The notes under the pieces were generated by a model. That model saw only the letters and a list, made by a program, of their open reading frames with translations, was not told the DNA's origin and searched no databases. Made by a program: the position numbers and the translations under genes. From the IMG/VR virus record IMGVR_UViG_3300021255_004000, positions 128,001-192,000 of that record: a stretch of 64,000 bases of DNA; one strand, given 5' to 3'. The first letter of the stretch is position 1. Each line of letters starts with the position of its first letter. Shown in pieces: positions 9,406 to 63,066 of the stretch. The DNA is from a virus. Its lineage: Duplodnaviria; Caudoviricetes.

Positions 9406-12400
9406 TTATTTAGTTTGCTTTCCTTTCAACCATTCATTATAATTTATTGTTGCACCACCCTGCAAAGTTTCAGGATCATAATAAACTTTAGTATCGTGCA
9501 ATTCATTATAACCACGCTTTTCAGCAGAATGAATATGAGGGTGTGACCAGAACTTGATAATGACATCCTTATCATAGTTCTTTCGATAAACATCCAAATA
9601 AGCAGGTCGTCTGATATGCTGATATTCAACAAATCCTGAGTGGTCAACTTCACACCAATGATCATCAACTATCCAGTATGAAATCTTTTCATTACCTGCA
9701 GAGCCATTTGTAAAGAATCCAAGTTGAGCTAAGTGAAAATCTGAACTTATTGAAATAGGTAACCAAATTACATTGTCTTTTTTAAGTGAACATCTATCAA
9801 ACATTCCTGTATGTTTTTCAGATGTAAATGTATCAATGTCAAGGAATGAATACTGCATTGTTGTTAAGTTGTTACAGCTGCTAAATATCCAAGAGTTGTT
9901 AGCATTAGGATTAAACTTCAAATTGCTTATCTTTGTTATTGGATTTTCTGTAAACATTTGGTCTGCATCATAAAGGTCTCTTGGGAATGACCAACCTTCT
10001 TTTGTTGTTTCATTTACCCAGTCATCTTCAAAAGTTCCCATTCCATTTTCATCTTGGTTACGATATGTTGTATATGAGTTTGGCGGAACCCAATTACCGC
10101 TTATCTCGGTGATACCACATTTTGCAAACATTCTTCTTGTAACTTGTAATGTTTCAGGAATCTCTGTTGCTTTTGTAAAATAGTCAGTTCTTATTCCTGT
10201 ACATCCTTCAAACATTGAAGTTGCGTCAATTAAAGCAGGCATTTCTTTAATGTTGAAGTCAGTAATGTTTTCACAGTTTTCAAACATATGCATTGCAGTA
10301 TAACAGCTGTTTGAGATAACATATGCATTTGTCAATGAATGACAATTCTTGAATGCATAATCTGCAATTTCAACGTTATTGAGGTTAGGACTAACCTCAA
10401 TAATATTACTACATCCTTCAAATGCTGATGTGATATCTTGAATGTTTTTGATTTCACCTACACAGTGCAAGTTTTCAATACCCTTAAACATTCCTTCTAT
10501 TGAGATGCTTTTATTCGTTGTGTTTTCGACTTTTCTTAAATGAAGAATAAGATTGTCAAACGCATTTGCTTCAACGGCTTTTCTGAAAGATGTATCATAA
10601 TTGTAATTTGTCTGTCTTTCATCACCAGATGTGTAAACATCAATGTTGAAGTTTGCTTTATTGTTTTCAGTGATTGAGAAAAGAGCACAGTCATAATCAC
10701 TTTTTATTTGTGCAAATACAGAATACCACTTCCAGAAGTCTTCTTCAGGAACGATTATATTTAGATGTTTATTAAAGTGATCATCTTGTCCGCTTTCTTT
10801 TTCATATATAGGTGAAAGTCCAAACTTCTGACTAAGTCCCCAACTTGCTTTATGAACAAGTCCTCTGTCTTCGTCAAACTGAGCAGTAAGTGTTGAATAG
10901 CTGCTACCACTTGCAGTGCCTTCATATCCACATCCGCTGCTAAGGCCTTTCTTACCAATGAATGTATGAGCAATTCTTGCTGATGTCCAAGTACTTCCAC
11001 TACCGCCACAACTGTTGATACTGTTTCTTGCAGAAGATGTTACAGATGTTGCATCATATGTAATAGAAACGATAATGTCATTTGAACCTGCAGCATTGAT
11101 AGCTGCTGCCCAAACTGCATCAGCAGAGTCAGGAGTTCCATAAGTATCGCCGCTTCCTTCATATTTGAACTGCATTGTCTTACAGTCAATAACACCAATG
11201 AAGTGGCCACGACTTCCCCAGCTTTTTACAGCTTTATCATCGATATAAATATATGCAGCATCAAATGACTCATCAAACTGTCTTGAAACAAGTTTGATGG
11301 TATGAACAGTTTTTGAATACTCCAAATATTTTGAATATCCATTATTTACAGCTGAATCACCAGCAAAATAATAGCAAGTCAACGGTTGTCTTGAAACATC
11401 ATAAGTTGATGCAACTTTTTGAATAAGAATTGCAGGATCCCAGTTACAAGCAAACTGATCTTCAGCTGACATAAACTGTTCAGGGATTGTTCCACTATGA
11501 TAAGAACCAACAAAAGCTGAGCGGAAATCATATTCACCTGCAACCCACTTATCATAAGTATCATTGAAGAATGTTCTAAGTTTGTCTTCATCAAGAGACC
11601 ACCGATATCTTATTTCACAGCCTCTGAACATATCTCTTGCAGATGTAAGTCCACTTGTTGTAAACTTGCCAACTTTTACACTAGTTGAAACAGAGTTTCT
11701 AAATGCTTCTGTCCAATCACCAGAAATGTTGACAAGTTCAAGAGAACTTATCTTTCCTGATATGTTCTTAAAAGCTCTTTTACCCCAAGTTGCATCTTTA
11801 ATGCGAACTTGTGTAACGCTTGCTCCAGCAAAGTCTGCATTGATAGGTGAGTCTTTCATATCTGCATTAAAGCATTTAACATAAGATGCATTAAGATTTG
11901 TTAAGTTGTCAGCGTGAACCCACAAATCAACATAAAGTTTTGAATTGCTTAATTCTGTATAAAATTGATTTGTTCTTTCAAGGTCTCCAGCATCATCAAT
12001 AATTGCAATAGGCAAAGCATAATCAGTCAATGAATTGTCGTCAACCCATAAGCGAGCTTCAGCAAGAATAAGTTTGCAATACTCTTTCCAAGATAATGTA
12101 TGATTGAAAGCAACAGGCACAGTTTCACCACTGAATGAAATTGTACATTGTCCACCTGGGGTGTCCCAGTTTCTTTCAACATAAACATATTCATCTTTAT
12201 TACCTACAGAGCAGCTGTAAGTGCTATAACGAATAAGTACAACATCCCCAACGGAGAGACTTAATGAGCCATTTGATGATGCATTATCATTATCAGCTCT
12301 AACTTTTCTTTCACCATTTACAAATATGTTAAGGATTCCGTCATCACTTGCAGATGTTGTGCCGCTTCTTACATCATTATAAGACCATTCCAATGATCCT

Positions 12401-14109
12401 GATTCTGAAACGATGAATGCCATATCATAAGCAGGAGTGTCTGTGCTATTATAATAATCTTTATATACGGTGAATCCTGTCTCATCTTTGTCACCTGTAA
12501 GATAACACTTGTCAACTACTTCATCATCATAATCAAGTTCATAATAAGAGTTTTGTGTAAATGTACCGCTAGCGCTTACAGTAATAAGGTCACCTGCAGA
12601 AACATCTATACTTGTTGTATAAGACTTTGTTTCGCCGTTATTTGAATATGATACAACTTGCGTACCATTTTTTGCAATAGTGATAGTTGGACTTATAGTT
12701 TGATAGTTATCATAACTGTTGAAGTAAGCAGATAATGACTGAAGTGCGCATTTAACAGAGATAGTTCCATCTTTTGTTACAACAAAATGTCCACTTTTTC
12801 TATGTTGTTCATTTGGGCTAATAAATGCAGAGCTTGAACTGTAACTTGGAGTATGTACAGTTGTTCCTTTGTAAGGGAGTCCATTTATTTTTGGTAAAGT
12901 TGATTTACCGCTTGTTGCATTAGTTAAGTTGTAGCCGCTGCGTGTTCTTGTTTGAGTGCAGCTTAATGTAACAATGTCACCAAGATTGTCTACACTAGAA
13001 GTACCAACAGTTTTAGTTGTACCGCCTCCAGTGTTCATATTTGTACTCCAACTTGTTATTCCGTTTTTGCAGCAGTAATTCATTACCCAATCGACTTCAT
13101 CTTCAAGATATGTTTTAGGAGCAGTTCCATCAAAATATGGACGGTAATAAAAAATTATTTCTGAACCAACTGCAACATCAGACCACATTACATCAAAAGT
13201 CAGGTCAGACCCCGCTGTTTCAGAAACAAAACTTGTTGCAAGAACTCCGCCAACATAAGCAGCATAATATGTTTTTGTTGTGCTGCTAGTAGAATACTGC
13301 ATTTTTAAGCTGCCACTTTCACTAGATGTTCTTAAGCATCTCCAAAGTTGAATGAAAGGATTGTTTTGTGCTGAGCTAATAGAATTGCCCCAGCCATTAC
13401 TCTTTGTCCAAGCTTTGTTATAATATGATATGTGAGTTTCTTCTTCCAAAGCATCATACACTCCAGTTGCTGTAAATCCGTCGTTTATCACATTGCCATC
13501 TGGCTCGCGATCTTCCCAACTTACAACCTTAAATTCAATTTTGTCACCTTTCTCATAAGATGTTGACAATGTAGAAGCTTTATTATCACTATCATTTTCA
13601 GCTTCAACTTCATCATTTTTCAAAAGAAACGCATATGTATCATTTACAGATCTATCATCATAAAATGAAACACTTATATTACCATCACAGTTTGCTATAA
13701 ATGAAAAGTTTCCAAAAGCAGCTTTTTTAACTTTTTTATATGTTGTTTCAACTTTTTTATAAAGTCTCTGTGTTGCTGTAAAATCCTTTGATAAAGTCAC
13801 TGGGCCTGAAATGCTTTTATAAAATTCTATATTATCAGGAAGTGAGCCTTGCGCTTGAGAAAGAGATGGCATATCAGCAGATGTTTTCAAAATAAAGCCA
13901 TTAAACTTCTTGTCAAATCCAAAGTCTTCATCGGTTGAAAAGTATCCATCAAGATCAATACTTTGCTGCCACTTTTGAGATGCGGGACCAACCCACACCA
14001 TATTCTTACAAAGTCTCCAGCTATCTTGATTATAATAAAGATTGCCATCATAAGTAGAAAGATGACCTGTGCTATTTGCGTTTATGTCGTCTGAAATTAA
14101 CCAACTCAT
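9406..14109 (-). CDS. Large virion surface / receptor-binding protein (beta-rich, ILEI/GG-lectin-like domain, BspA/DUF285-like LRRs)
   Basis: S/T/G-rich beta repeats; RGHFIGVID...IVSITYDA...RIAHTFIGKKG; repeated (A/M)FxxCxxI. Confidence 0.6.
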   Translation of the reverse strand: MSWLISDDINANSTGHLSTYDGNLYYNQDSWRLCKNMVWVGPASQKWQQSIDLDGYFSTDEDFGFDKKFNGFILKTSADMPSLSQAQGSLPDNIEFYKSISGPVTLSKDFTATQRLYKKVETTYKKVKKAAFGNFSFIANCDGNISVSFYDDRSVNDTYAFLLKNDEVEAENDSDNKASTLSTSYEKGDKIEFKVVSWEDREPDGNVINDGFTATGVYDALEEETHISYYNKAWTKSNGWGNSISSAQNNPFIQLWRCLRTSSESGSLKMQYSTSSTTKTYYAAYVGGVLATSFVSETAGSDLTFDVMWSDVAVGSEIIFYYRPYFDGTAPKTYLEDEVDWVMNYCCKNGITSWSTNMNTGGGTTKTVGTSSVDNLGDIVTLSCTQTRTRSGYNLTNATSGKSTLPKINGLPYKGTTVHTPSYSSSSAFISPNEQHRKSGHFVVTKDGTISVKCALQSLSAYFNSYDNYQTISPTITIAKNGTQVVSYSNNGETKSYTTSIDVSAGDLITVSASGTFTQNSYYELDYDDEVVDKCYLTGDKDETGFTVYKDYYNSTDTPAYDMAFIVSESGSLEWSYNDVRSGTTSASDDGILNIFVNGERKVRADNDNASSNGSLSLSVGDVVLIRYSTYSCSVGNKDEYVYVERNWDTPGGQCTISFSGETVPVAFNHTLSWKEYCKLILAEARLWVDDNSLTDYALPIAIIDDAGDLERTNQFYTELSNSKLYVDLWVHADNLTNLNASYVKCFNADMKDSPINADFAGASVTQVRIKDATWGKRAFKNISGKISSLELVNISGDWTEAFRNSVSTSVKVGKFTTSGLTSARDMFRGCEIRYRWSLDEDKLRTFFNDTYDKWVAGEYDFRSAFVGSYHSGTIPEQFMSAEDQFACNWDPAILIQKVASTYDVSRQPLTCYYFAGDSAVNNGYSKYLEYSKTVHTIKLVSRQFDESFDAAYIYIDDKAVKSWGSRGHFIGVIDCKTMQFKYEGSGDTYGTPDSADAVWAAAINAAGSNDIIVSITYDATSVTSSARNSINSCGGSGSTWTSARIAHTFIGKKGLSSGCGYEGTASGSSYSTLTAQFDEDRGLVHKASWGLSQKFGLSPIYEKESGQDDHFNKHLNIIVPEEDFWKWYSVFAQIKSDYDCALFSITENNKANFNIDVYTSGDERQTNYNYDTSFRKAVEANAFDNLILHLRKVENTTNKSISIEGMFKGIENLHCVGEIKNIQDITSAFEGCSNIIEVSPNLNNVEIADYAFKNCHSLTNAYVISNSCYTAMHMFENCENITDFNIKEMPALIDATSMFEGCTGIRTDYFTKATEIPETLQVTRRMFAKCGITEISGNWVPPNSYTTYRNQDENGMGTFEDDWVNETTKEGWSFPRDLYDADQMFTENPITKISNLKFNPNANNSWIFSSCNNLTTMQYSFLDIDTFTSEKHTGMFDRCSLKKDNVIWLPISISSDFHLAQLGFFTNGSAGNEKISYWIVDDHWCEVDHSGFVEYQHIRRPAYLDVYRKNYDKDVIIKFWSHPHIHSAEKRGYNELHDTKVYYDPETLQGGATINYNEWLKGKQTK

Positions 14110-16877: not shown

Positions 16878-17633
16878 TCAAATAGGCCATAATGAATCCT
16901 TGTTGTTGCGAATGTCTTCCATTCTTTGTTTCAAAATCTTAGGTGTACCAATTCTGAAGATTCCGTCAAACTTCGACCAATAACGGTCCTTCAAATAGTA
17001 CTCAAGTTGAGCCTCTGAGAAAACCCAAACATTCTTAATTGAACAGCCATAAAATGATGATGTGGAAAGTTTTGGCGGCAAGAATCTTTCGCAAACGATA
17101 TCACTAAGATAAATGCAGCCTTCAAAAGCTTTCTTTCCTATTGTTGCTAAAGACACAGGAATGTCGAGAACTTTAATTCCTGAGGACTGAAAAGCTTCTT
17201 CTTCGATTGTTTCAACTTTATTAAGATTAAGATTTCTCAGTTTAAGACAAGCTTGAAAGCACCTTGGAGGAATGTTTTCAATGTTAGGCGGCAAGTCGAT
17301 TTGTTGCAATCCTGAATAAGAAAACGCATCAGGATATAAGTTGTTTATTGTTGTAAAGTTAAAGTCTTTTAATGACTCACAGAAAGTAAATGCAGCAGGA
17401 CCAATGATCTTTGGAAGTCCATCGAATCTTTCAAGTTCCCAACAGTTTGCAAAAGCGCGTTCACCTATCGTTTCTGTCTGTGGACCACTTAAGACAAAAT
17501 GAAGTTTCTCTGCTCCTTCAAAAAGCTGAGGTTTTATGTTATCATTAAAGTCCATAAGGTTTGCCATATATGGACGATTCTGTCTGAGACATTTCTTTAT
17601 GTCGCGTTCGTTCTTACAGTTGATAATTTTCAT
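16878..17633 (-). CDS. BspA-type leucine-rich repeat protein
   Basis: Repeated TIGxxAFxxCxxL. Confidence 0.85.
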   Translation of the reverse strand: MKIINCKNERDIKKCLRQNRPYMANLMDFNDNIKPQLFEGAEKLHFVLSGPQTETIGERAFANCWELERFDGLPKIIGPAAFTFCESLKDFNFTTINNLYPDAFSYSGLQQIDLPPNIENIPPRCFQACLKLRNLNLNKVETIEEEAFQSSGIKVLDIPVSLATIGKKAFEGCIYLSDIVCERFLPPKLSTSSFYGCSIKNVWVFSEAQLEYYLKDRYWSKFDGIFRIGTPKILKQRMEDIRNNKDSLWPI

Positions 17634-30921: not shown

Positions 30922-32565
30922 TTATAAGCAGTTACTTAAAACATCAAGTTGTAATGGTTTACCCCAAACATATCCTTGAACATAATCACAACCTAAGAAA
31001 GCCAAAGTTGAAAGTTGAGCTTGATCTTCAACACCTTCAGCAATAACTTTACATCCCATAAGATGCCCAAGTTTAATGATTATATCAACGAATGATCTGT
31101 CACTTTCTTTAGTAAGCATTTTATCAACAAATGACTTATCGATCTTTAACATATCAACAGGCATTTTTGACAAATAGTTTAATGAAGAGTAACCTGTTCC
31201 AAAGTCGTCCAAAGCTGTTTTGACGCCAAGAACTTTTAATCTTTGAACAACCTGTGCAGCTTCTTCAATGTATCTTATATATGAACTTTCAGTTATTTCA
31301 ATCTTTAAGTTCTTTGGCGGGAAACCAGATTCTGAAAGAGAATCAATGACATTCTCAACAAAGCCTTTATTAGTAATGTGTTTTCCAGAAACATTTATTG
31401 ATACTTCAATGTCAGGATGTAAAGTAACGAAATCTTTCATTTGTTTCATTACATTATGCATTACCCACATATCAATTTCATATATAAGTCCGCTCTTTTC
31501 AGCAACCTGAATAAATTGCTGTGTGTTGATGTACTCGCCTTTCTTATTCTTTAATCTTATCAAAGACTCAAAACCTATAAGCTTGTGTGAATTGATTTCA
31601 TATTGTGGCTGATACAACATTTCAAAAGTATTATTCTTGATAGCGTTTTTCAAATCTTTTTCAGTTAAATAACGCTTCATTATTTCTTGGTACATATCTT
31701 GGTCAAAGAAATAGTAATCGTTCTTGCCGCCAAGTTTTGCTTTATACATTGCAGTATCCGCATAAGAAAGCAACTGTTGTAAGTCTGCAGTATCTTCATC
31801 ATATAATGCCAAACCTGCAGAAGCAGAAACATAATTTGCAAACTTTGACTGAAGTGTTGTGATTGAATGAAGAACATTAGTTACAAACTCTCTTGTTGTT
31901 TCTTTATCTTTTGTTTCATAAATGATTGCGAACTCATCTCCGCCTAAACGACAAACTGTAAATGGATATTTTGACGGAAGTTTGCTCCAAGTTGTAGCAA
32001 CCTCACAAAGTAATTCATCTCCTGCTTCGTGTCCTAAAGTATCATTAACTTGTTTGAAGTTGTCAAGGTCAAGGAACATAAGATAGAAATCTTTTCCCAT
32101 CTCGCTTTTCATTGCAAGCTCACGCAAAAGTCCGCGTCTGTTCAAACAACCTGTAAGTTGGTCTGTATATGCAGCTCTGTCAAGATCTTCTTCATCTTGT
32201 TTTAATCTTTTAATGTAACGCCACAATGTATAGACTAAACAACATCCCAATAATGAAAATGCCATTCCTGCACCGCAGTTGATAAATCCTTCGTGAATAA
32301 AATTGAGAATTGCAGATGCAAGCATAAAAGCATTGATTGGGAATACTATTTTGAAGACTTTTCCATTTGAAATGATCATTGCAAGAGAAAATGCGAATAT
32401 CTGAAAAGCCATCATACAACCGTTGATTGTAACGATTGCAGCTTTTGGAAGTGTGACGAGACAAGGAATGACTCCTAAGCCGTTAAGTAAAATTACTGTA
32501 AAAAATATAAGGCCCAGGAGAATCAAAATCTTTGAGATTGTGCGTCTTCTAGGTATGGTCTTCAT
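30922..32565 (-). CDS. Membrane-bound diguanylate cyclase / phosphodiesterase (GGDEF-EAL); start reassigned to 32565
   Basis: 4 TM; DLDNFK, RLGGDEF, ESLIR, EITES, DDFGTGYSS, KIDKSF, EGVE, QGY; ACTAATT 10 nt before ATG. Confidence 0.95.
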   Translation of the reverse strand: MKTIPRRRTISKILILLGLIFFTVILLNGLGVIPCLVTLPKAAIVTINGCMMAFQIFAFSLAMIISNGKVFKIVFPINAFMLASAILNFIHEGFINCGAGMAFSLLGCCLVYTLWRYIKRLKQDEEDLDRAAYTDQLTGCLNRRGLLRELAMKSEMGKDFYLMFLDLDNFKQVNDTLGHEAGDELLCEVATTWSKLPSKYPFTVCRLGGDEFAIIYETKDKETTREFVTNVLHSITTLQSKFANYVSASAGLALYDEDTADLQQLLSYADTAMYKAKLGGKNDYYFFDQDMYQEIMKRYLTEKDLKNAIKNNTFEMLYQPQYEINSHKLIGFESLIRLKNKKGEYINTQQFIQVAEKSGLIYEIDMWVMHNVMKQMKDFVTLHPDIEVSINVSGKHITNKGFVENVIDSLSESGFPPKNLKIEITESSYIRYIEEAAQVVQRLKVLGVKTALDDFGTGYSSLNYLSKMPVDMLKIDKSFVDKMLTKESDRSFVDIIIKLGHLMGCKVIAEGVEDQAQLSTLAFLGCDYVQGYVWGKPLQLDVLSNCL

Positions 32566-32575
32566 ACAAATTAGT

Positions 32576-32770
32576 TTATGGTTCCTCGGGATGTCGGATG
32601 TAATAATCAGTTTCAGTAAAGAGTTCGCCACAGTCACTTGGTCTCTCCTTATCATTGATTGTATATCCGAAACAACAACAAGGAACTCTTTCGTTGTTAG
32701 GACCTTTAGGCGGAGCAACACGATACTTGCAAAGGCGACATCCTGTAGGTTTAGATTCTTTCTTAGCCAT
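32576..32770 (-). CDS. Small Cys-rich protein
   Basis: CRLC...CCC...C. Confidence 0.55.
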   Translation of the reverse strand: MAKKESKPTGCRLCKYRVAPPKGPNNERVPCCCFGYTINDKERPSDCGELFTETDYYIRHPEEP

Positions 32771-36589: not shown

Positions 36590-37336
36590 ATGGTTGATTT
36601 TGATATAAAGCATTATTTGATTGATGAAGTCGAAGTTGAAAAGGACCCTCATCGCTTTGATAATTTTTATGGCGACATCGAAAGCAAACCAGAGACAGAG
36701 CAACAATTATTTGCTCTTCAAAAGGAATATCTTGAAAACGGCCGCTCACAGGAAGTGTGGGCGAAAATGTTTGAAATATGTTGGTCGTATATGCAGTCTT
36801 TGATTAAGAAAAGACAGACAGGTGGTAAGTTTATCGAAAAAGAAGAACTTGACGATAAGACTACTGCTGCAACACTTGCATTTATGTCGCAATATTTGAC
36901 AAAGCCTGAGTTTGAAGTTGGCGCTTCATTTGCTGGTATGATGGGATGGAAAATCGTTGAGGTTATGTACAAACCATCTGCTGACGATAAAGCTGTTTCA
37001 ATGTCATTGGAAATTGATGATGACGGAAAGAACACACTTGAGGATTTGATTGCTGCTGAAGAAGTTGGCGGCTGGACATCTCCTGAAGATGATGTATGTC
37101 GAGAAGACCCAATTGATATTATCAATGAAGTACTTGAAGAACTTGATGAAGTTATCGACGATTTCTATTTAAGAACTATTGTAAGAGGCTATTTAACTCT
37201 TTGTCTTAAACATCCAAAGAATCGACATTCAAAAAGAATGTTCTTAAATCGTTGGGCAACAGATCAGAAATCTGAGAAGTTGATTGAATACACAATGTTG
37301 ACAATTCACAACAGATTAAGAGAGGCAAGCAACTAA
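36590..37336 (+). CDS. Phage sigma-70-family factor (probable late sigma)
   Basis: Region-2/3-like: ELDDKTTAATLAFM...GASFAGMMGWKI...VSMSLEIDDDGKNTLEDLI. Confidence 0.6.
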   Translation: MVDFDIKHYLIDEVEVEKDPHRFDNFYGDIESKPETEQQLFALQKEYLENGRSQEVWAKMFEICWSYMQSLIKKRQTGGKFIEKEELDDKTTAATLAFMSQYLTKPEFEVGASFAGMMGWKIVEVMYKPSADDKAVSMSLEIDDDGKNTLEDLIAAEEVGGWTSPEDDVCREDPIDIINEVLEELDEVIDDFYLRTIVRGYLTLCLKHPKNRHSKRMFLNRWATDQKSEKLIEYTMLTIHNRLREASN

Positions 37337-51377: not shown

Positions 51378-51666
51378 ACTTTCTCGTCTCCCAATTTATA
51401 ATTTTATCAACTTCTCTCTGTATGACTGCTGCATCAATCTGCTTTACATCTTCGTCATCATCAACTTCATAATTCCAATAATATTCAAAATTGATATAAT
51501 AACACTTTATATCTTTGCGATAGCCATAATCAATATTGATTACAGATATTTCTTCATCTTCAGTAATTTCAGCAACTTTATTCATAAATTGCTCGTGTTC
51601 TTTTTTACTGAAAAGATATGAGCCTTTCGAAGGCGCATCTGTATCACAGGTCAAATTCACTGTCAT
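51355..51666 (-). CDS. Hypothetical protein
   Basis: SD GAGGAG; coupled. Confidence 0.6.
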   Translation of the reverse strand: MTVNLTCDTDAPSKGSYLFSKKEHEQFMNKVAEITEDEEISVINIDYGYRKDIKCYYINFEYYWNYEVDDDEDVKQIDAAVIQREVDKIINWETRKYESSSGT

Positions 51667-52364
51667 ATTCTCCTCAATAGTTCATCAATCTCATCGTTTC
51701 TTTCTGCGTCTCGAACAGCAGCACCTTCATTTTGACGAATTTCTTCTGTTCGATTTCTGATACGCTGAATGTACTCTTCGTTCGTTTCATCTTTGTAACC
51801 GTCAAGATTTTTAGGCAATTCAGTTAAACCTACATCAGCAGTTTCATCGGTTACAACAACTTCCCAGCCATCAAAAATTGTTGGGTCCTGTTCTGAACAA
51901 AAGTCAAGAACAAATGATGAAAGATAAACAGTTCTCTTTACACCGTTTTTCAGTTCATTAAGAACATCAGTTGTAACATCAACCATTTCCATAGGTCCGT
52001 CAGCGTGATATTTATTTATGAACAACCGATTATTTGCTGTATCAACTTCAACATCAGTCAAACGGTAAACTGCTTTCTTTGCATATTCTTTCTTTGTCTT
52101 CTGAAGATCTTTTCGGATCTCTTCAAGGATCTTATTGTTCTCTTCGTCAAACTCGTACTGCTCTTCACCAATGATTTCACCTTTATTGTAATATGTTACA
52201 ACAGCGCCTGTGAATTCACTAGCAAGATAGTTAAAACCGTTGTCGGTCCAACTGTTATAGCCCAAGTTTAAGCGTCGATGACGAAGAGTTGAGCAGTCTG
52301 TTGTGTCGCCATAATAAAGATCAGCTGTGTATGCGCTTCCTAAAGAATTATTCAATACTGTCAT
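51663..52364 (-). CDS. PxxFxG-module family member
   Basis: TVYLSSFVLDFCSEQDPTIFDGWEVVV. Confidence 0.7.
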   Translation of the reverse strand: MTVLNNSLGSAYTADLYYGDTTDCSTLRHRRLNLGYNSWTDNGFNYLASEFTGAVVTYYNKGEIIGEEQYEFDEENNKILEEIRKDLQKTKKEYAKKAVYRLTDVEVDTANNRLFINKYHADGPMEMVDVTTDVLNELKNGVKRTVYLSSFVLDFCSEQDPTIFDGWEVVVTDETADVGLTELPKNLDGYKDETNEEYIQRIRNRTEEIRQNEGAAVRDAERNDEIDELLRRI

Positions 52365-54457: not shown

Positions 54458-55935
54458 TTTTTCCGCTTTCATTTTTACAACTTTTTCATAAAGTTTTTTG
54501 ATTTGTGTGCCACTTTCTTTGATCTTTTCCCTAAGATCGTCCAAGAACATTTTTTGCTGTTTCTTCTGTAGACGAAGTTTTTCCACATTCTTGAAAGAGT
54601 TCATAAGAAACTGAACATTTTTGTCTGACATCTTTTCAATAGGGATTTTCGCCATCTTTTTGATGTACCCATATTCCCGCTGCAAGGCATATTCAGTCAT
54701 TGGAAGATTTCCATACTTATTTGCTTTATAGCGATTTTTGAGAGAAACTTCCAAGTTTCGCTGATGTGTCAATTCAACAATTTTAGACTCAAGAGCTTCA
54801 ATACTGTTTTTGCTTTCATACATCTGGCAGTCCTCAAAAGTATCAAACTCTTTGCCGTCTTCTGAAATATAAACTTTCTTTGTTTCGACTGTCATACCAA
54901 GTCCTCCAACTTAATATCTTTATAAGCATCCTCTCGGATAATGTCGTGTTCAAAATTGTCCATAGGGAAACGATGCCGAGTAATGATTCTCTCACGAACA
55001 ATCAACTTTGCATAAGCTTCAGCATTTTTATCATAAAACTTTCGATAATCGTATGTTTGATTATGAGGTTCATAACCTGGGCTGTTTGGTTTGTCAATAC
55101 AACGGCGGTAACAATATTCATCACTCTTTTTACCGCTGTGCTTGCAAGACAAGCAAGGACTTTTCTGTTTGCTTTCGATGATTATAGTTTCTTCTTCAAC
55201 AGAACGCTCAAGAAACAGGTCGCTCATCAATCTCCTCCTCCTCGAGAAGCTTTTCTGTTTCTCGATTAAGTTCCTGACGATCAGATGAAGTATAAAAAGC
55301 AACTCTTTTCAATTTGAGTTCTGAAGTTTTGTTCTTCAGCATCCCATAAGCGCAGTATGAATTCTTAAGTTTTGCAACTTTATTTTCTGATGCCATCAAT
55401 TTCTCCAAACAAATGTACTACTTTACTAGAATGACCAATGTCAACTGAAATGTCGAACAACTTTTCCAAATTAAGAAAGGGATTAAAACCTGTTGCTGCA
55501 GAAATTTCGATTGTAAAATCATCAGGCAGATTTTTCGTCAATTCTCTAAACTGACCCAAAGTAAGTCCGTCCATTTTCAACTCCTTAATTGTGATAGAGT
55601 TCGCGTGCAACAACGAATGGGTTGCCTTTCTGATAACCATATCTGTCTTTCTTGTAAGCAATTTCAAGTTCGAAGTCCTTTCCAAGTTCAAGAGGACCAG
55701 ATTTTGAAAGGATGCAGTCGAAAGAATTGCTGCCGTAAATTGCCTTATCGCAAGACATCTTTGCAAACTTTTCAGCTTCCTTTTCTGTCTTTGCGATTAC
55801 TGTTGACTTTGCTGTGTATGAACCAAGCTGTGGGTTATAGCGGGTGTACTGATATTCAAACTTGTACCATTTTTTCTTTGCAGCCATTTCAAGGCGGTCA
55901 TCAGTTGTCCAAAGATATGCAGGTTTCTTTTCCAT
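54446..55935 (-). CDS. Cluster of early hypothetical genes (54446-54895, 54892-~55227, 55208-~55396, 55380-~55574, 55585-55935)
   Basis: Coupled ORFs after class I promoter. Confidence 0.6.
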
Positions 55936-55969
55936 AATTTGCTCCTTTTATTTGGCGTTTTACAGAAAT

Positions 55970-55998
55970 AATATAAAAGAAGCTAATGCAAAGTTCAA
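55970..55998 (-). promoter_or_regulatory. Class I promoter
   Basis: TTGAAC-17-TATATT. Confidence 0.85.
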
Positions 55999-55999
55999 T

Positions 56000-56491
56000 T
56001 TATTCCCAAGTATTTTTAATTATTTGTACATTTATTCCGTTGAAAAACTCAGGACTGAACTCGATAATTGCCTCAGCTATTGCAGGAAAAACATAAACGG
56101 GAAACTCTCCATAAGATGGAGCAGGAACTGCATCACGAATGCATTTTACCCAAATCAATGTAAAATAAAAGTTTTTGATCTCAGGCGGCATTGGGTATCT
56201 ATCATAATTCTTGATAAAAAACTCTACTGCTTTATCGTAAGCTTTTGAAAAGCCTTTTCTGGAAGCTATTGAAAGTTTATCAACATATGTAATTACGGGT
56301 GATATTGACTGCATTGAAAAGTCGATATAAAAATATCTTTTTACTGCAATGAACACTTGACGATACTTATCTGGGTCATCATCAAAGTCATAGTTTGCTG
56401 CCCAACTTGTCAAAAGACTTCTTGCATACATTGGGTCAAACTTTTTTGTAACTTCAGCCCATTTATTAAGGCTTTCCACCGACTTTGTCAT
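56000..56491 (-). CDS. PxxFxG-module family member
   Basis: PVYVFPAIAEAIIEFSPEFFNGINVQI. Confidence 0.7.
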   Translation of the reverse strand: MTKSVESLNKWAEVTKKFDPMYARSLLTSWAANYDFDDDPDKYRQVFIAVKRYFYIDFSMQSISPVITYVDKLSIASRKGFSKAYDKAVEFFIKNYDRYPMPPEIKNFYFTLIWVKCIRDAVPAPSYGEFPVYVFPAIAEAIIEFSPEFFNGINVQIIKNTWE

Positions 56492-58058
56492 ATGTTGTCA
56501 TTTCTCCATCATCTTTACTTGGGCTTCGATTGCTGTTTGTAAGCAGCCACTTACGATAGCATTCCATACATCTTACTTTTACGAGTTTGCCTTCTTTGTT
56601 GTAAATATGTTCAAAATGAATTGTACCTGCGTGAGAGGAGAAACGATACTCGCCAAAGTAATCTCCAATTACCTTAGGATGCTTATGTAAAATATGTTCC
56701 TTAATAAGAGCGTCAAAAAACTCATCATCAGTTTTGTACTGTTTTGGAAGTTGGAAGTTTTCCTGTGTCATTGCATTTGCTTCTTCCATTACAAGCGCTT
56801 CTTTTTCAATAAGAAGTTCAAGTCGTTCAACGCCCCGTAAGATAGATGCTTTTTGATCTTCGATTTCTCTGTCAAGCAATTTTATATGATCATCATAGGA
56901 TGTATAGTTTTCACTTGTATCATCTTTTGGTGGGTCAAACAAACGCATACCGATTGAAAACACATTGCGATTTTTGATACGCTCATCACGGTTCTTTTTG
57001 CGTTCTGACATAAGAGACATTGTCTTTTTGATGGCTGCATCTTTATCAAAAGTTGCCGCCACATCAACAACTTTCTTATCGTCAATTTCGAGATCCATCA
57101 TTTTTTCATCTCGTTCTGTATCTTCTGGGTCAATCATTCAAAACCTACCAATTTTATCATATCAACTCTAGCATTTTCAAAACCCATTGAAGGCATATCA
57201 CAAGTTGTAAACTCGCCGCCGGAAGTGTCTCTTTCATACTCGAGAATCACGCAGTCATTGCGATGCTCAATCTTTGTAACATTATCAACAGTTATCTTTT
57301 TTCCGTTTTTGAGAAACACTTCTGCTCGCATATTACCACCCCAATTTCTTGTTTGGATCTTTTGCTCGAACAATAACGCAGTTTGCTGGAGAGAGCCCAA
57401 AGTTGATAGTTGAAGGAGTCATCTTCGCAACTTTTACAATAACAACACTTGCGCCTGCTCCACTTGCAACAGTATCACCAATCTCAATGGGAATGCCAAA
57501 CTTATCAGTAAGAGGATGCTTTTTAAGGTACTCATCTTTGTCATTTACTTTAGTTAAAGCAGAGTTAACTTTCATAAATCTTTCAAAACCAAGTACATTT
57601 GCAATGTGTTCTCTTAATGCTACGATAGGCGGATGATTTTCCCAACCAGTGAAATCTTTTTCTTTGTCATCTGCAAAAGACGCTATTTTCAAGTTGAACC
57701 TAACAAGCTTACAAGGCTTATAATTATTTGGATAGTGTCTTTTAACATATTCTTCATTGTCAGTGTAATCTGGCTCACAAGTAGAATAGTAACCGTAGCT
57801 AAAGCCATCAACAATTTTATAAGAGATGTTAAAAAATGTTCTACCAAAGTTGATGTCATTGACACCTTTAACAACATCTTTTGAAATTATTTGGAGTTTC
57901 TTGAAAGCATTGATGCAGCCTTCGGTTGTATCATCACAAGGAAACAAATGATAGAACTTGAAGTAACGAACTCTTTCGCCATCAACTTTTTCACTAAGGA
58001 AATTATCCCAGTCAAGTTCAACATATTCAAGCAGACACTGTTTCTCGATGTATTCCAT
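56466..58058 (-). CDS. Three hypothetical genes (56466-57137, 57134-~57331, 57333-58058)
   Basis: Coupled ORFs; GTTAATAT at 58075-58082. Confidence 0.6.
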
Positions 58059-58077
58059 AAAAACTCCTTATTGAATA

Positions 58078-58209
58078 TTAACTCCAAAGAAGTGACTCAG
58101 GATGCTCACAGATCCTTTCTGCAGCGTGTTTGATAGCAGCTTCCCAGTTATAAGTTTTGTTTTTGATTGCCTTTTTGATTGCGGCAACTTTAGTCGTCAT
58201 CTTCTTCAT
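58078..58209 (-). CDS. 43-aa FlgM-like (anti-sigma28) protein, not in ORF track
   Basis: MKKMTTKVAAIKKAIKNKTYNWEAAIKHAAERICEHPESLLWS; SD GGAGA upstream. Confidence 0.55.
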   Translation of the reverse strand: MKKMTTKVAAIKKAIKNKTYNWEAAIKHAAERICEHPESLLWS

Positions 58210-59862
58210 CTTCGTTATCTCCTACAGCCTGTTTAATCTGATCTTGAAGTTTTGATAATGCAGAAAGCAAAGCAAGTTTCTTTACCAGTTCATCTGCCTT
58301 GTCAGGAGATGCGCCTTCCATAACAAGTTTTGCGGCCATTGCGTGCATTGACATTGCTGCTTCAAAAGCCTTCCATTCACCATCAGTTTTTGGTCGAACT
58401 TCAGCAGGAAGTTTCCAAGCAGCCTTCTTGTTGATAATGCGGCGGGCGCGTTCAATATCCATTTCACGATATGCTTCGATTTCTTCTTTAAAGAAATCCC
58501 TCAACTTGAAACGAACGTTGTGATCTTTGTAGTCTTTGAACGAAAGAGCATTTGCCATCATTTCAGAAAACGCTTTTGCAACTTTTAAGTTTGTAAACTC
58601 AGCAATGTCTTGCTCAACACCATCATAAACCCACAAGTGGCCATTTACACCTGTCTGTTTGATAGTGACTTTCCAATGGCGGTTCCAACCTGAAGTATGA
58701 TCTTCAAAGTGGTAAACAATTACCACATAATCTTTCTCCAAAGGAAGTCCATAACGGTTATGCATTGCGTCAAATAACCAACCATCACCTATTGGCTTAG
58801 GTGTGTTTGAAAAAGGTCTACCCATTCTTGTGCTCCTTACTGTATGTGTTTAATGCGTCTGCAACAATTTGACAGATGTCGTCAAAGAACAATCCGTCAG
58901 CAAGCGCATCATAAATTGCATCTTTAAGATTTTTCTCCACTTCAGTTTTTGACATTCACCCACCTCTTAATCATAGTAATCTGAAACTTCTTCACCGTTC
59001 CAAAGTCTCATTGGCCCACACCAAGAACCTTTGTAATACCCAGGAATATAAAATCCGCCGTCTTCTGTAGGCTTTACCATAATTCTTTTTGGAATAAGAC
59101 AGTTGCAGTTGTTTGAAAGAACTACATAGTCTTCCCAGAAACTTTGATTGTTTGCTTTTGCAACCATCTTGGCTTTGTCATACTGATCTTTTGTTCCTTT
59201 AAGAAGATCAAAGCCGTACTTTTTATTGTAATCTTTATAAACTGCCTCAAGGCTTTTAAGTGCTTCTTCATCAGGAAGTTTGTATGAATGACCTGTTCCG
59301 CCGCCTTCGTGTTCAAAATGTGTTTGCTTTGACGGCATTTTGACTACAAGAACTGATTTCTTTGATGTCCCAACAATTTTGAAAAATGTTGAAGAATTAC
59401 ACCAATGCTGAACTAAAATTGTTCCAATGGGAATGTCTTCTGGTGACTTCAAAGACTTAATATCCATTTTCAAACTCCTTAGAATGAAGCGAGAACTTCA
59501 GCATTTTCCATTGCAAAGTTTGCATCTTCCATAGCACGAGCCTTTGCCCAAGCAATAGCAGCATCCTTTTCCTTTTTTGTAAGGATGTACTTTCCGTCAG
59601 CGTCAACCTCGTGAATGTAAACCTTGTGAACCATCTTTCGAGGATTGCGGCTGTATGACTGTGACCAACGAATTCTTTCGCGTTCTTCACGAGCCTTTTC
59701 GAGAAGTTCTTCTTTGTCAGTTGATGGTTTTGTTACATCAAAGAAACAAGGATTTTCACCTTTCAAAAGGGCCCAAGCTTTAATTGTAAGATTTGTAGCA
59801 ATATCTTCCCTTTTCCAAGCACCTTCAGAAAATACGCGGAAATATTTGATCTTGTTTGCCAT
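58190..59862 (-). CDS. Early hypothetical genes (58190-58825, 58818-58955, 58967-59473, 59479-59862)
   Basis: Coupled ORFs after class I promoter. Confidence 0.6.
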
Positions 59863-59895
59863 AATTTGCTCCTTGTTTTGGTTGTTTACAAAAAT

Positions 59896-59924
59896 AATAT
59901 AAAAGACATTACATCAAAGTTCAA
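59896..59924 (-). promoter_or_regulatory. Class I promoter
   Basis: TTGAAC-17-TATATT. Confidence 0.85.
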
Positions 59925-59958
59925 TTTTTTCTATAAAATAATTATCATATTTTCATAT

Positions 59959-59987
59959 TTATTATTGTCCCATATAGCTAAAAAAGT
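59959..59987 (+). repeat. 29-bp dispersed element, copy C
   Basis: TTATTATTGTCCCATATAGCTAAAAAAGT, followed by palindrome TTGACA-CTTTT-TGTCAA. Confidence 0.95.
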
Positions 59988-60033
59988 CAGGTTGACACTT
60001 TTTGTCAATCTGTCTAAATGTTAATATACTTTT

Positions 60034-60900
60034 ATGGGAAATAACGCATATCATAAAAAGGACAGTCTTGAGTTCTTCCCTACACAAGAATGGGTAAAAG
60101 AAGCTTTATACTCAATGATGAAAGGGACTGAGAAAAATATTCTCGATCCTTGCTGTGGAGATGGCGGACTTGAGTACTTTGACAAATATGAATATAAGTT
60201 GATGGACATTGAGAATCGAGGACTTGAAGGTGTTGAACTTTGTGACTTTTTGAAACGCGAGCCAAAAGAAGGAGAGCATTATGACTGTGCTGTTATCAAT
60301 CCACCGTTTAGTCTTACTGATGAGTTCATCACACAAGCGTTCAAATACACAGATGATATTTATTTGATTGCGCCTTTCAAGTCAGTTTATAAGAAATGGA
60401 ACTTTGCAATAGTTGATAGCATTCTTGACTGGAGAATACCTTACCAATGTTTTGCAATTTTGACTTCGGTTGGACTGATGCATTTGAGAAACAAAAAGCA
60501 GTTTACTTTCGGGGCAGTAAAGAACAATGCAGATACATTTTGGGGACAAGAATTACCTTATGAGAAAAGTTGGAAACAAACATTCTTTGTTGCAGAAAAA
60601 GCTCCTGATAAGTGGTTTATTGTAAATCGTTTGACAAAAGCAAGAGTTCAAAGAAATGAGGAACTTATTCAAGAAAAAGATATTTATGCGCCAAATGATG
60701 AGAATGCATTTATTGTTGAAAAGGGAAATACAAACACTAAAGCAGGTGACAAAATAAAGCGAGAGATTATGCTGTTTGATAGCAAAGAAGACGCTTATGC
60801 TTTTCGTCAGAAGTATATTGATAACAGTGATTATGTAAGAAATTATTGTTACTTGTATGGCGGAACTGTACTTGACATCCGCAAGATACCACTGTTATGA
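60034..60900 (+). CDS. DNA N6-adenine methyltransferase
   Basis: FFPT, ILDPCCGDGG (SAM binding), INPPF (catalytic). Confidence 0.85.
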   Translation: MGNNAYHKKDSLEFFPTQEWVKEALYSMMKGTEKNILDPCCGDGGLEYFDKYEYKLMDIENRGLEGVELCDFLKREPKEGEHYDCAVINPPFSLTDEFITQAFKYTDDIYLIAPFKSVYKKWNFAIVDSILDWRIPYQCFAILTSVGLMHLRNKKQFTFGAVKNNADTFWGQELPYEKSWKQTFFVAEKAPDKWFIVNRLTKARVQRNEELIQEKDIYAPNDENAFIVEKGNTNTKAGDKIKREIMLFDSKEDAYAFRQKYIDNSDYVRNYCYLYGGTVLDIRKIPLL

Positions 60901-61425
60901 AAAGATGTACTTTTCTGATACAGCAAACACTAGTGGTTTAATTTGTGGGATAAGTTCTTGAGCATCTTTCAATGTTGTACCTGTACTTACAACATTATCA
61001 ACAAAATACACAGGTCCATCAATGTCCTGCATTGCGTCGTAAAGATACATACCTGATGAAAACTTTTGTCCTTTTAAGTCGATACCATTCTTTTCTTGCC
61101 AAGCTTTTTTGATTGCATATAAAGTCTCTCTTGGTGTACAACCCATAACATCAATGATTGTTACTTCATAAGGACAAACTTCTTTAATGTGTTCACAAAT
61201 TTTTAATGTGTACTCTGCCTTGCCTGTATGTTGCGGGGCGGGTACCAAGAAACAGTCTTTTTTGATTTGAGACGCAAGAAAGTCGCCCATTTCTTCAATG
61301 GCCCATTCATTATTTTCTTTTACACCGTGTGCAACTTCCGAAACATATCCGTGTTTGTAAATGTATGCTTCTGTATCGCCAAGCACAACTTTTCTTGCGT
61401 GTTCTTTATCAACCAACTGTTCCAT
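60895..61425 (-). CDS. Phosphoribosyltransferase-fold (ComF-like) protein
   Basis: LVPAP; VYFVDNVVSTGTTL PRPP-binding loop. Confidence 0.75.
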   Translation of the reverse strand: MEQLVDKEHARKVVLGDTEAYIYKHGYVSEVAHGVKENNEWAIEEMGDFLASQIKKDCFLVPAPQHTGKAEYTLKICEHIKEVCPYEVTIIDVMGCTPRETLYAIKKAWQEKNGIDLKGQKFSSGMYLYDAMQDIDGPVYFVDNVVSTGTTLKDAQELIPQIKPLVFAVSEKYIFS

Positions 61426-61432
61426 ACAAAAG

Positions 61433-61681
61433 TTAGTAAGTAATCATCTCCATAGATGGCATAGCGCAGTTGCAGAATGCATTTTTATTGTTTGGACAAT
61501 TTTGACAACATTTAGGTAAGTTTGGTTTATAATCTTCAAAACCAAGTTGCTTGTCAGTTTGATTATGATCTTTCAACCAATCATAAATTGCTTGATTAAA
61601 AACATCGTGGGTTGCACCACTGTGTTCAATCATTACTTGTTCAAGTGTTAAATCACTTGTGTTTGTTACATAAGTTCTCAT
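61433..61681 (-). CDS. Small Cys-rich protein
   Basis: CCQNCPN...CNC. Confidence 0.55.
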   Translation of the reverse strand: MRTYVTNTSDLTLEQVMIEHSGATHDVFNQAIYDWLKDHNQTDKQLGFEDYKPNLPKCCQNCPNNKNAFCNCAMPSMEMITY

Positions 61682-63066
61682 AGTTTAATTGGTTCTCCTG
61701 TTACAATTTCAACTTTATATCCTTTTTCTGTAAGGTGTTGTTGTAGGTACTCTTGAGCATCTTTATCACCGTGTACAAGAAAAATCTTTTTTAATTTTGA
61801 TGTATCAACTTCCTTCAACCAAGCAGCGATTTCATTATAATCTGCGTGAGCAGAGAAAGCGTTAATCTTGTGTACTTCAGCTTTCAAATGATACTCTTTA
61901 TTGTCGATAGTAAGCAACTCTTCTTTTTCAAGTATCTTTCGGCCTAAAGTGCCTTCGCCCATATAACCAACAATAAGAATTGTGTTCTTAGGATTTTCAA
62001 TGCCTTCTTTAAGGTGGTTGATAATTCTTCCTGCTTCACACATTCCATTTGCGGCGATTATGATAGCAGGAACTTGTGACTTTGCAACCAACTGGCTTTC
62101 ACGGAAGTCTGAAATGAACTGCAAAGAACGAACACTAAAAGGATTCTTACCTTTGCTTATAAACTCATTTACAATCTTTTCATTAAAGCATTCAGGATGT
62201 ATGTTGAAAACGCCAGTTGCATTACTTGCCATAGGAGAATCAACATAAACAGGAACTCTTGGAATAGCATTAACAGCCATCAATCTTTTAATGTAATAAA
62301 TAATTTCCTGAGCTCTTTCAACAGCAAACGATGGGATAATTACTTTACCGCCGCGTTTTATTGTTTCATTGATAACAGTTGTAAGTTCTCCGTAACAATG
62401 TTCCAATGACTCGTGTGTACGGTTGCCGTAAGTACTTTCAAGGAATATGTAATCAGGTGCAGGCATATCTGTATCAGGCTTTCTTGTGATAGGATTTGAG
62501 TTGCGTCCTAAGTCACCTGTATAAAGAATATGCATTCTTTCATCTTCTTTTTTAATCAACTTTTGAAGGAAGTTTCTTTTTCTTTTAACTGATATGTCAA
62601 TCATTGATGAACCAAGAATATGACCTGCATCATACATTGTATATGTTATGCGTTCATCAAGTACTTTTTCTTTTCGATATGCGTGGCATCTGAAGTGGTT
62701 GATTGTCTCAACAACATCAGACTCTTCATATGCAGGTCCGCCCTTTTCATACTTTTGAATCTTTGCAGAGTCAAGCATTACTATTGATGCAAGATCTCTT
62801 GTTGCTGGTGTTGAACGGATTGAACCTTTGTAACCGTCTTTGATAAGTTTTGGCAATAAGCCACAATGGTCATAGTGTGCGTGTGTTAAAAAGACTGCTT
62901 GAAGTTTGTCAACTTGGAAAGTGAATTCTCTGTTGCGTTCTTGAGCACTTTCAGCACCTTGCCAAGCGCCGCAGTCAATCATATATGGTAAGCCATCAAT
63001 CTCAAGAATATGTTTTGAGCCAGTGACTTCACCGACAGCCCCGAGAGAGTAGGCGATTATACTCAT
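61678..63066 (-). CDS. MBL-fold beta-CASP ribonuclease (Ysh1/CPSF-like)
   Basis: EVTGS, IDCG, THAHYDHCG, AGHILGS, TGDLG, ESTYG, FSAHAD, VHG. Confidence 0.92.
   Translation of the reverse strand: MSIIAYSLGAVGEVTGSKHILEIDGLPYMIDCGAWQGAESAQERNREFTFQVDKLQAVFLTHAHYDHCGLLPKLIKDGYKGSIRSTPATRDLASIVMLDSAKIQKYEKGGPAYEESDVVETINHFRCHAYRKEKVLDERITYTMYDAGHILGSSMIDISVKRKRNFLQKLIKKEDERMHILYTGDLGRNSNPITRKPDTDMPAPDYIFLESTYGNRTHESLEHCYGELTTVINETIKRGGKVIIPSFAVERAQEIIYYIKRLMAVNAIPRVPVYVDSPMASNATGVFNIHPECFNEKIVNEFISKGKNPFSVRSLQFISDFRESQLVAKSQVPAIIIAANGMCEAGRIINHLKEGIENPKNTILIVGYMGEGTLGRKILEKEELLTIDNKEYHLKAEVHKINAFSAHADYNEIAAWLKEVDTSKLKKIFLVHGDKDAQEYLQQHLTEKGYKVEIVTGEPIKL

Follow-up and report, generated by a model that had tools for sequence, protein, structure and literature searches.

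A short conserved gene in a leftward phage gene block

The window, as we call the whole 64,000-nt stretch of viral DNA that was analysed, carries on its minus strand a 43-aa open reading frame (ORF), hereafter mini-FlgM (MKKMTTKVAAIKKAIKNKTYNWEAAIKHAAERICEHPESLLWS). The earlier note had reported this ORF together with a Shine-Dalgarno (SD) sequence, and both are present, with the quoted protein sequence in place. The gene and its start region comprise the following features.

58078..58209, minus strand: mini-FlgM gene, 43 aa from the first ATG, stop codon included (ORF list, homologues, Pfam FlgM as top match, hhalign, purifying selection)
58078..58200, minus strand: alternative 40-aa form of mini-FlgM, with the second ATG (M4) as its start, as in most homologues (alignments A1 and A2)
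58210..58222, minus strand: ribosome-binding site, GGAG 9 nt 5' of the first ATG (direct sequence reading)

The ORF shares 20 nt with the stop end of the upstream 211-aa gene (58190-58825) and is separated by 19 nt from the downstream 241-aa gene (57333-58058), filling the gap between them as the earlier note had stated. Mini-FlgM is gene 5 of a long block that runs leftward from near 59862; it lies outside any host flagellar operon or regulon and is surrounded by phage genes without assigned function. PHROGs gives no match for mini-FlgM or for the neighbouring genes, Rfam gives no relevant RNA family in 55000-61500, and a comparison with 50,697 deposited phages gives no match either by megablast with 4 kb around the gene or by tblastn with the mini-FlgM protein.

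Two genes in the vicinity deserve mention in their own right. The 211-aa gene directly upstream of mini-FlgM, also on the minus strand, ends in an acidic tail (NEDEEDDD). A second IMG/VR locus (L001) has mini-FlgM in a conserved gene order and lacks this 211-aa neighbour; its absence from an otherwise syntenic locus implies a recent gain or loss. Near the mini-FlgM block, both phages keep a gene for a 462-aa beta-CASP / metallo-beta-lactamase RNase-like protein, located at 61678-63066 (minus strand) in the window and at 2671-4059 in L001.

A word-indexed search returned 21 homologues of 38-59 aa with 68-93% identity to mini-FlgM, and an exhaustive HMMER search of 1.84 billion cluster representatives added 25 further homologues of 32-68 aa (E 4e-21 to 2e-4; alignment A2). 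The 46 homologues obtained across both searches are all short and metagenomic, most of them are 40 aa long, and the family comprises at least 25 clusters at 50% identity. Among the orthologues (n = 3), pS is 0.84-1.0 (saturated) and pN is 0.11-0.24, and third-position wobble is visible in the ortholog DNA alignment. Mini-FlgM is under strong purifying selection, and the ORF is a real, conserved gene.

A few homologues depart from the common architecture. A search for longer homologues, which covered 105-2000 aa and so a range outside which FlgM-sized proteins (76-105 aa) fall, gave one protein of 182 aa (P0022) from a single metagenome contig. This protein contains CW_7 (PF08230) repeats, and its end corresponds to mini-FlgM without the N-terminal third (KLIKEGTYDW...PESLLWR); a genuine fusion, a frameshift or a chimeric assembly could each account for it. 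Two proteins of 67-68 aa (P0027 and P0033) have hydrophobic N-terminal extensions ahead of the mini-FlgM core and are either membrane-anchored variants or the result of mis-called upstream starts.

Mini-FlgM resembles the C-terminal part of FlgM

The top Pfam match of mini-FlgM is FlgM (PF04316), with 16.4 bits (E 0.011) against a gathering cut-off of 25 bits. FlgM likewise ranks first in Pfam for 21 of the 22 close homologues and 27 of the 37 wider-family members, and three distant members score above the cut-off (P0029, 29.4 bits; P0035, 26.5 bits; P0038, 25.6 bits). Because these three both join the mini-FlgM family profile, at library-wide E values of 6e-11 to 3e-8, and exceed the Pfam cut-off, they provide a transitive link from mini-FlgM of the window to FlgM. 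The HMM comparison with the FlgM family that the earlier note had put forward as a check thus does return FlgM profile matches.

In a six-frame scan of the 39-kb L001 record with PF04316, mini-FlgM alone matches (E 1.9e-4, covering profile positions 21-53 of 55), and it is the best match in the 2.1-Mb metagenome bin that holds a related contig (bin G002; see below). The best match of the family profile among PDB sequences is a FlgM chain (9wsf_B; E 0.31), and the nearest ESM Atlas cluster of mini-FlgM carries FlgM on 11% of its members, which serves as a lead only.

For profile-profile comparison, an alignment of 32 Treponema FlgM proteins (A3) was gathered with the Pfam model, independently of the phage motif. 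When the mini-FlgM family (A2) is aligned with A3 by hhalign, the probability is 86.7 and the P value 4.3e-6, over 34 ungapped columns in which family residues 2-35 correspond to residues 58-91 of the 95 in Treponema FlgM; the close mini-FlgM set alone (A1) gives a P value of 1.4e-5. The A2-A3 score of 33.3 lies ~10 s.d. above the scores from 200 column shuffles of A3 (10.1 +/- 2.2; maximum 17.4), and the reversed alignment control scores 11.8. An HMM built from A3 ranks the mini-FlgM ORF best (E 8.9e-4) of the 1367 stop-to-stop frames of at least 25 aa in a six-frame search of the window. In the reciprocal direction, the family profile places the FlgM gene among its top two six-frame matches in four of five Treponema genomes (E 0.1-0.46) and misses it in the fifth, a result that is weak but consistent with FlgM homology.

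The helix 1 motif was also searched for directly. An exact scan for KVxxIKxAIxxxTY in 596 Gb of prokaryote genomes gives at least 120 matches, compared with ~20 expected by chance according to our estimate from codon degeneracy and database size. Under a strict filter, 86 of the 120 among the matches listed are FlgM-like, being 80-130 aa long with the motif near the C-terminus; the others listed are mostly chance frames or genes cut by contig ends, plus one mini-FlgM family member. The motif appears almost exclusive to FlgM among the prokaryote-genome matches listed.

A generic FlgM set selected with this motif gives a P value of 4e-12 in hhalign. We do not count this value as evidence, because the set was chosen with the phage motif, and the comparison served only to show a two-residue gap. 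In a three-way alignment, generic FlgM (YkVda--eaiAdKL) needs this gap between the turn and helix 2 relative to the mini-FlgM family (YDWeaAIehaAErI), and the longer spacing of the latter is common to Treponema FlgM (YLNdAVIaSAADrI). The FlgM residue pattern proposed in the earlier note misplaces the second helix of mini-FlgM by two residues, the real spacing being that of Treponema FlgM. Helix 1 of the family (KVxxIKKAIKNxTY) is nearer to generic FlgM than to Treponema FlgM, and for this reason we make no claim of recent capture from a particular host.

Overall, the proposal that the ORF is FlgM-like and holds only the sigma-28-binding half is supported by the top Pfam match, by the hhalign P value and by the absence of the N-terminal export part. 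The profile evidence favours homology between mini-FlgM and the C-terminal, sigma-28-binding part of FlgM.

Predicted structure and sigma-28 contact positions

The AF2 model of mini-FlgM (pLDDT 88) contains helices at residues 2-16 and 22-35, separated by a 5-residue linker, and a short helix at residues 37-40. The parts of the protein lie at the following positions.

58162..58206, minus strand: helix 1 (residues 2-16), with KVAAIKKAI; from the AF2 model; V8, I11 and I15 align with FlgM V77, I80 and I84
58105..58146, minus strand: helix 2 (residues 22-35), WEAAIKHAAERICE; from the AF2 model and alignments; A29, A30, I33 and C34 align with FlgM V96, A97, L100 and L101
58081..58101, minus strand: tail PESLLW(K/R/S) (residues 37-43), conserved in A1 and A2 and absent from cellular FlgM

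Residues 61-107 of P. aeruginosa FlgM, whose full-length form binds sigma-28 with a Kd of 2.2 nM, are enough for a stable sigma-28 complex, and their crystal structure comprises two helices with a six-residue linker (PMC12784957). Residues V77, I80 and I84 of helix 1 pack on sigma-4 residues L200, L204 and L210, residues V96, A97, L100 and L101 of helix 2 occupy the sigma-4 groove, and the start of helix 1 contacts sigma-2 (PMC12784957). With the P. aeruginosa numbering verified on P. paraeruginosa FlgM (locus L036), all seven sigma-4 contact residues align with conserved hydrophobic or small positions of mini-FlgM. Across 37 family members, the position of V8 is V, I or L in 36, that of I11 varies only among I, L, V and F, and I15 never changes. 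In helix 2, 35 of the same members carry A, T or S at the position of A29, 30 carry A at that of A30, 36 carry I or L at that of I33, and 34 have a hydrophobic or small residue at that of C34.

Mini-FlgM lacks everything N-terminal of P. aeruginosa FlgM residue ~74; the absent parts are the disordered export region and the sigma-2-contacting start of helix 1 (P. aeruginosa 61-75). Only 4-7 residues precede helix 1, and all 46 homologues fall within 32-68 aa, while Treponema FlgM proteins are 94-124 aa long, mostly 95. The affinity or inhibitory power of mini-FlgM may be lower because the sigma-2-contacting start of helix 1 is absent. The PESLLW segment is the most conserved of the family and has no FlgM counterpart, and this tail may point to another partner.

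Fold comparison with the AF2 model is not decisive. Foldseek gives no match in the PDB. A wide VIA-align search returns only generic helical hairpins and places the FlgM chain 9wsf_B at rank 31 of 48,161 (Z 2.7; r.m.s.d. 3.6 Å over 38 residues), with an identity of 26% that is the highest among the matches listed. These searches do not discriminate for or against a FlgM fold for mini-FlgM.

A related 306-kb contig points to a probable Treponema host

A contig of 306 kb that is more distant from the window than L001 (C130; JAZNWZ010000130.1; loci L072, L123, L125 and L256) encodes a mini-FlgM that is 63% identical to that of the window, and the two also have a 501-aa protein in common (48% identity). 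The contig was binned in a 'Candidatus Fimenecus' metagenome-assembled genome (bin G002), apparently in error, and has the look of a giant phage with a relationship to the window. The flanks of its mini-FlgM gene differ from those in the window, and an NAD-dependent ligase gene lies shortly downstream in both.

The contig carries the only flagellin gene of bin G002, adjoined by a FlaA gene, and the rest of the bin is devoid of flagellin and FlgM. The flagellin shows 65-73% identity to FlaB from dozens of Treponema genomes of gut and rumen origin. Of 41 sampled Treponema genomes, 40 contain one FlgM that exceeds the Pfam cut-off, and FliA above the TIGR02479 cut-off occurs in five of five. A 53-aa FlgM match in another Treponema genome (G038) was rejected as a short FlgM, its gene being cut by the contig end. 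On the basis of this relative rather than of the window itself, the window is probably part of a giant gut or rumen phage that infects Treponema.

The FlgM-sigma-28 pair has been studied in this genus. The divergent FlgM of T. pallidum, TP0974, binds the sigma factor TP0709 (PMC1943423). Transcription of T. denticola flaB2 depends on sigma-28, and preliminary data indicate that TDE0201 (FlgM) antagonises TDE2683 (FliA) (PMC9481697).

Sigma-28 promoters and other genes of the window

Sigma-28 -10 boxes are not enriched in the window, where 3 CCGATAW sequences are found vs 4.9 expected, and none is present within 4.9 kb around flaB of the related contig. Among the host flaB genes nearest to phage flaB, sigma-28 promoters were found upstream at 3 of 59 loci, a figure that says nothing either way.

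The earlier note had combined mini-FlgM with a GGDEF-EAL enzyme into a two-stage motility-hijack system. The GGDEF-EAL gene is real (30922-32721; EAL 252 bits, GGDEF 120 bits) but absent from C130, which keeps mini-FlgM, so the pairing is not conserved and gives no support to a fixed two-stage system; the only EAL protein in bin G002 is on a different contig. A related-locus search of genome contigs with the mini-FlgM family alignment and with the GGDEF-EAL protein found nothing. A phage sigma factor had likewise been placed at 36590, and this assignment finds no support: the ORF at 36590-37336 (plus strand) gives no sigma-family match in Pfam, PHROGs or PDB sequences, and its best Pfam match is DUF445 (E 0.013). 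On C130, no match to sigma-70 region 2 was found.

Several other proteins of the window were noted in passing. BspA-type leucine-rich repeats (LRR_5) occur in a 1567-aa protein at 9406-14109 and in a 251-aa protein at 16878-17633, both on the minus strand. The second-best match of the Treponema FlgM HMM in the window (E 0.007) is a 233-aa ORF at 51663-52364 (minus strand), where a match of about 10 bits spans FlgM positions 14-83 and takes in VDVTTDVLNELKNGVKRTVYL; in Pfam, this ORF has no more than a weak DUF7174 match.

Comparison with bacterial FlgM

The comparators for mini-FlgM were FlgM (PF04316), T. pallidum TP0974 and T. denticola TDE0201, together with the structures 9WSF (P. aeruginosa) and 1SC5 (Aquifex aeolicus). 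Like mini-FlgM, bacterial FlgM has two C-terminal helices, a short linker and the same hydrophobic contact positions for sigma-28 domain 4, and Treponema FlgM additionally has the same inter-helix spacing. By contrast, bacterial FlgM is 95-110 aa long rather than 40-43 and possesses a disordered N-terminal region for export and the first part of helix 1 with its sigma-2 contacts, whereas mini-FlgM has the extra PESLLW(K/R) tail and is a stand-alone phage gene outside flagellar operons. Judged by its sequence, mini-FlgM is a homologue of the sigma-28-binding domain of FlgM and not a functional equivalent of the exported checkpoint protein.

Mini-FlgM is a natural near-equivalent of the P. aeruginosa FlgM 61-107 construct, whose 47 residues lack the N-terminal 60 and form a stable sigma-28 complex (PMC12784957). 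Compared with this construct, it is ~13 residues shorter N-terminally and has two extra inter-helix residues and a different C-terminal end.

A putative non-exportable anti-sigma-28 protein

We favour the reading that mini-FlgM is a non-exportable anti-sigma-28 protein and give it a probability of roughly 55%. Binding to FliA, inhibition, non-exportability, timing and benefit to the phage are all steps that we infer. Mini-FlgM would bind host FliA (sigma-28), mainly at domain 4, via the hydrophobic face known from FlgM. Its two helices in sigma-28 domain 4 would block core and promoter contacts, leaving no working holoenzyme and no promoter reading. The cell would be unable to relieve this block by export because mini-FlgM lacks the N-terminal half used for flagellar type III export. 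Host sigma-28-dependent genes, such as flaB2 in T. denticola, would remain off during infection, and phages of the mini-FlgM clade would meanwhile provide their own FlaB and FlaA. A non-exportable anti-sigma-28 fits with the FlaB and FlaA of the clade and with the lack of sigma-28 -10 boxes.

An alternative that we consider unlikely is that the FlgM-derived hairpin has been retargeted to a new partner through its PESLLW tail, be it FliS, domain 4 of another host sigma factor, RNA polymerase or a phage protein. The flagellin chaperone FliS is reported to bind FlgM in the Salmonella literature, and the flagellins encoded by the clade need chaperoning. The tail, being most conserved in the family and missing from FlgM, would suit a new partner, as would a neighbourhood in which all genes are without assigned function. 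However, the positions kept invariant or hydrophobic in mini-FlgM are precisely those of the FlgM contact with sigma-28. Moreover, no conserved neighbour accompanies the gene, whose flanks differ in the window, L001 and C130, and no phage sigma factor was found in the window or on C130.

A decoy or protector role, in which mini-FlgM would bind sigma-28 at the FlgM site without inactivating it, displace host FlgM and turn sigma-28 genes on, seems improbable to us. Such a role would agree with the investment of the phage clade in flagellar filament genes and with retention of the sigma-4-contacting helices in a protein that lacks the sigma-2-contacting start of helix 1, which helps to lock the compact inactive form of sigma-28 (PMC12784957). 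In the crystal structure, however, the two helices that mini-FlgM keeps fill the groove of sigma-4 on which core and promoter contacts depend (PMC12784957), so that plain occupancy by mini-FlgM should inhibit. In addition, the window shows no enrichment of sigma-28 -10 boxes and the surroundings of C130 flaB contain none, which leaves the phage with no visible use for active sigma-28.

Equally improbable is that a short amphipathic protein of two helices, unrelated to FlgM in function, resembles it by chance or convergence: such likeness might be expected of only 43 aa, with single-sequence scores of the window protein under every curated threshold and structure searches that return only generic helical hairpins, but it sits poorly with three family members above the Pfam FlgM cut-off, with a profile-profile P value of 4e-6 about 10 s.d. 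over shuffles, with the near-exclusivity of KVxxIKxAIxxxTY to FlgM among the prokaryote-genome matches listed, and with a lineage-specific two-residue spacing that the family has in common with FlgM of the probable host genus.

The preferred reading of mini-FlgM as a non-exportable anti-sigma-28 can be extended, tentatively and with distinctly less confidence, to a coordinated takeover of the periplasmic flagellum by giant Treponema phages. Mini-FlgM would silence the host sigma-28 regulon, FlaB and FlaA driven by phage promoters would replace or remodel the filament, and PESLLW would offset the missing FlgM helix by an additional contact, made either with RNA polymerase or with a further domain of sigma-28.

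Implications for phage control of spirochete motility

T4 AsiA is a phage anti-sigma protein that binds sigma domain 4 and targets the housekeeping sigma-70. By analogy with this small phage protein, mini-FlgM would be expected to occupy domain 4 of a host sigma factor too. The two are unrelated in sequence and fold; mini-FlgM derives from the host's own anti-sigma, and its predicted target is the alternative flagellar sigma factor. To our knowledge, most of the phage anti-sigma proteins reported to date act on the housekeeping sigma factor, and our literature search found no paper describing a phage-encoded FlgM.

If the extended reading of a flagellar takeover is true, no phage anti-sigma before mini-FlgM would have had an alternative, flagellar sigma factor as its target. 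On the preferred reading, mini-FlgM would represent a simple viral override of the flagellar assembly checkpoint, with the host anti-sigma reduced to its non-exportable binding helices, and would provide a natural minimal sigma-28 inhibitor of about 40 residues. Together with the FlaB and FlaA of its clade, mini-FlgM points to deliberate phage control of spirochete motility in gut and rumen communities.
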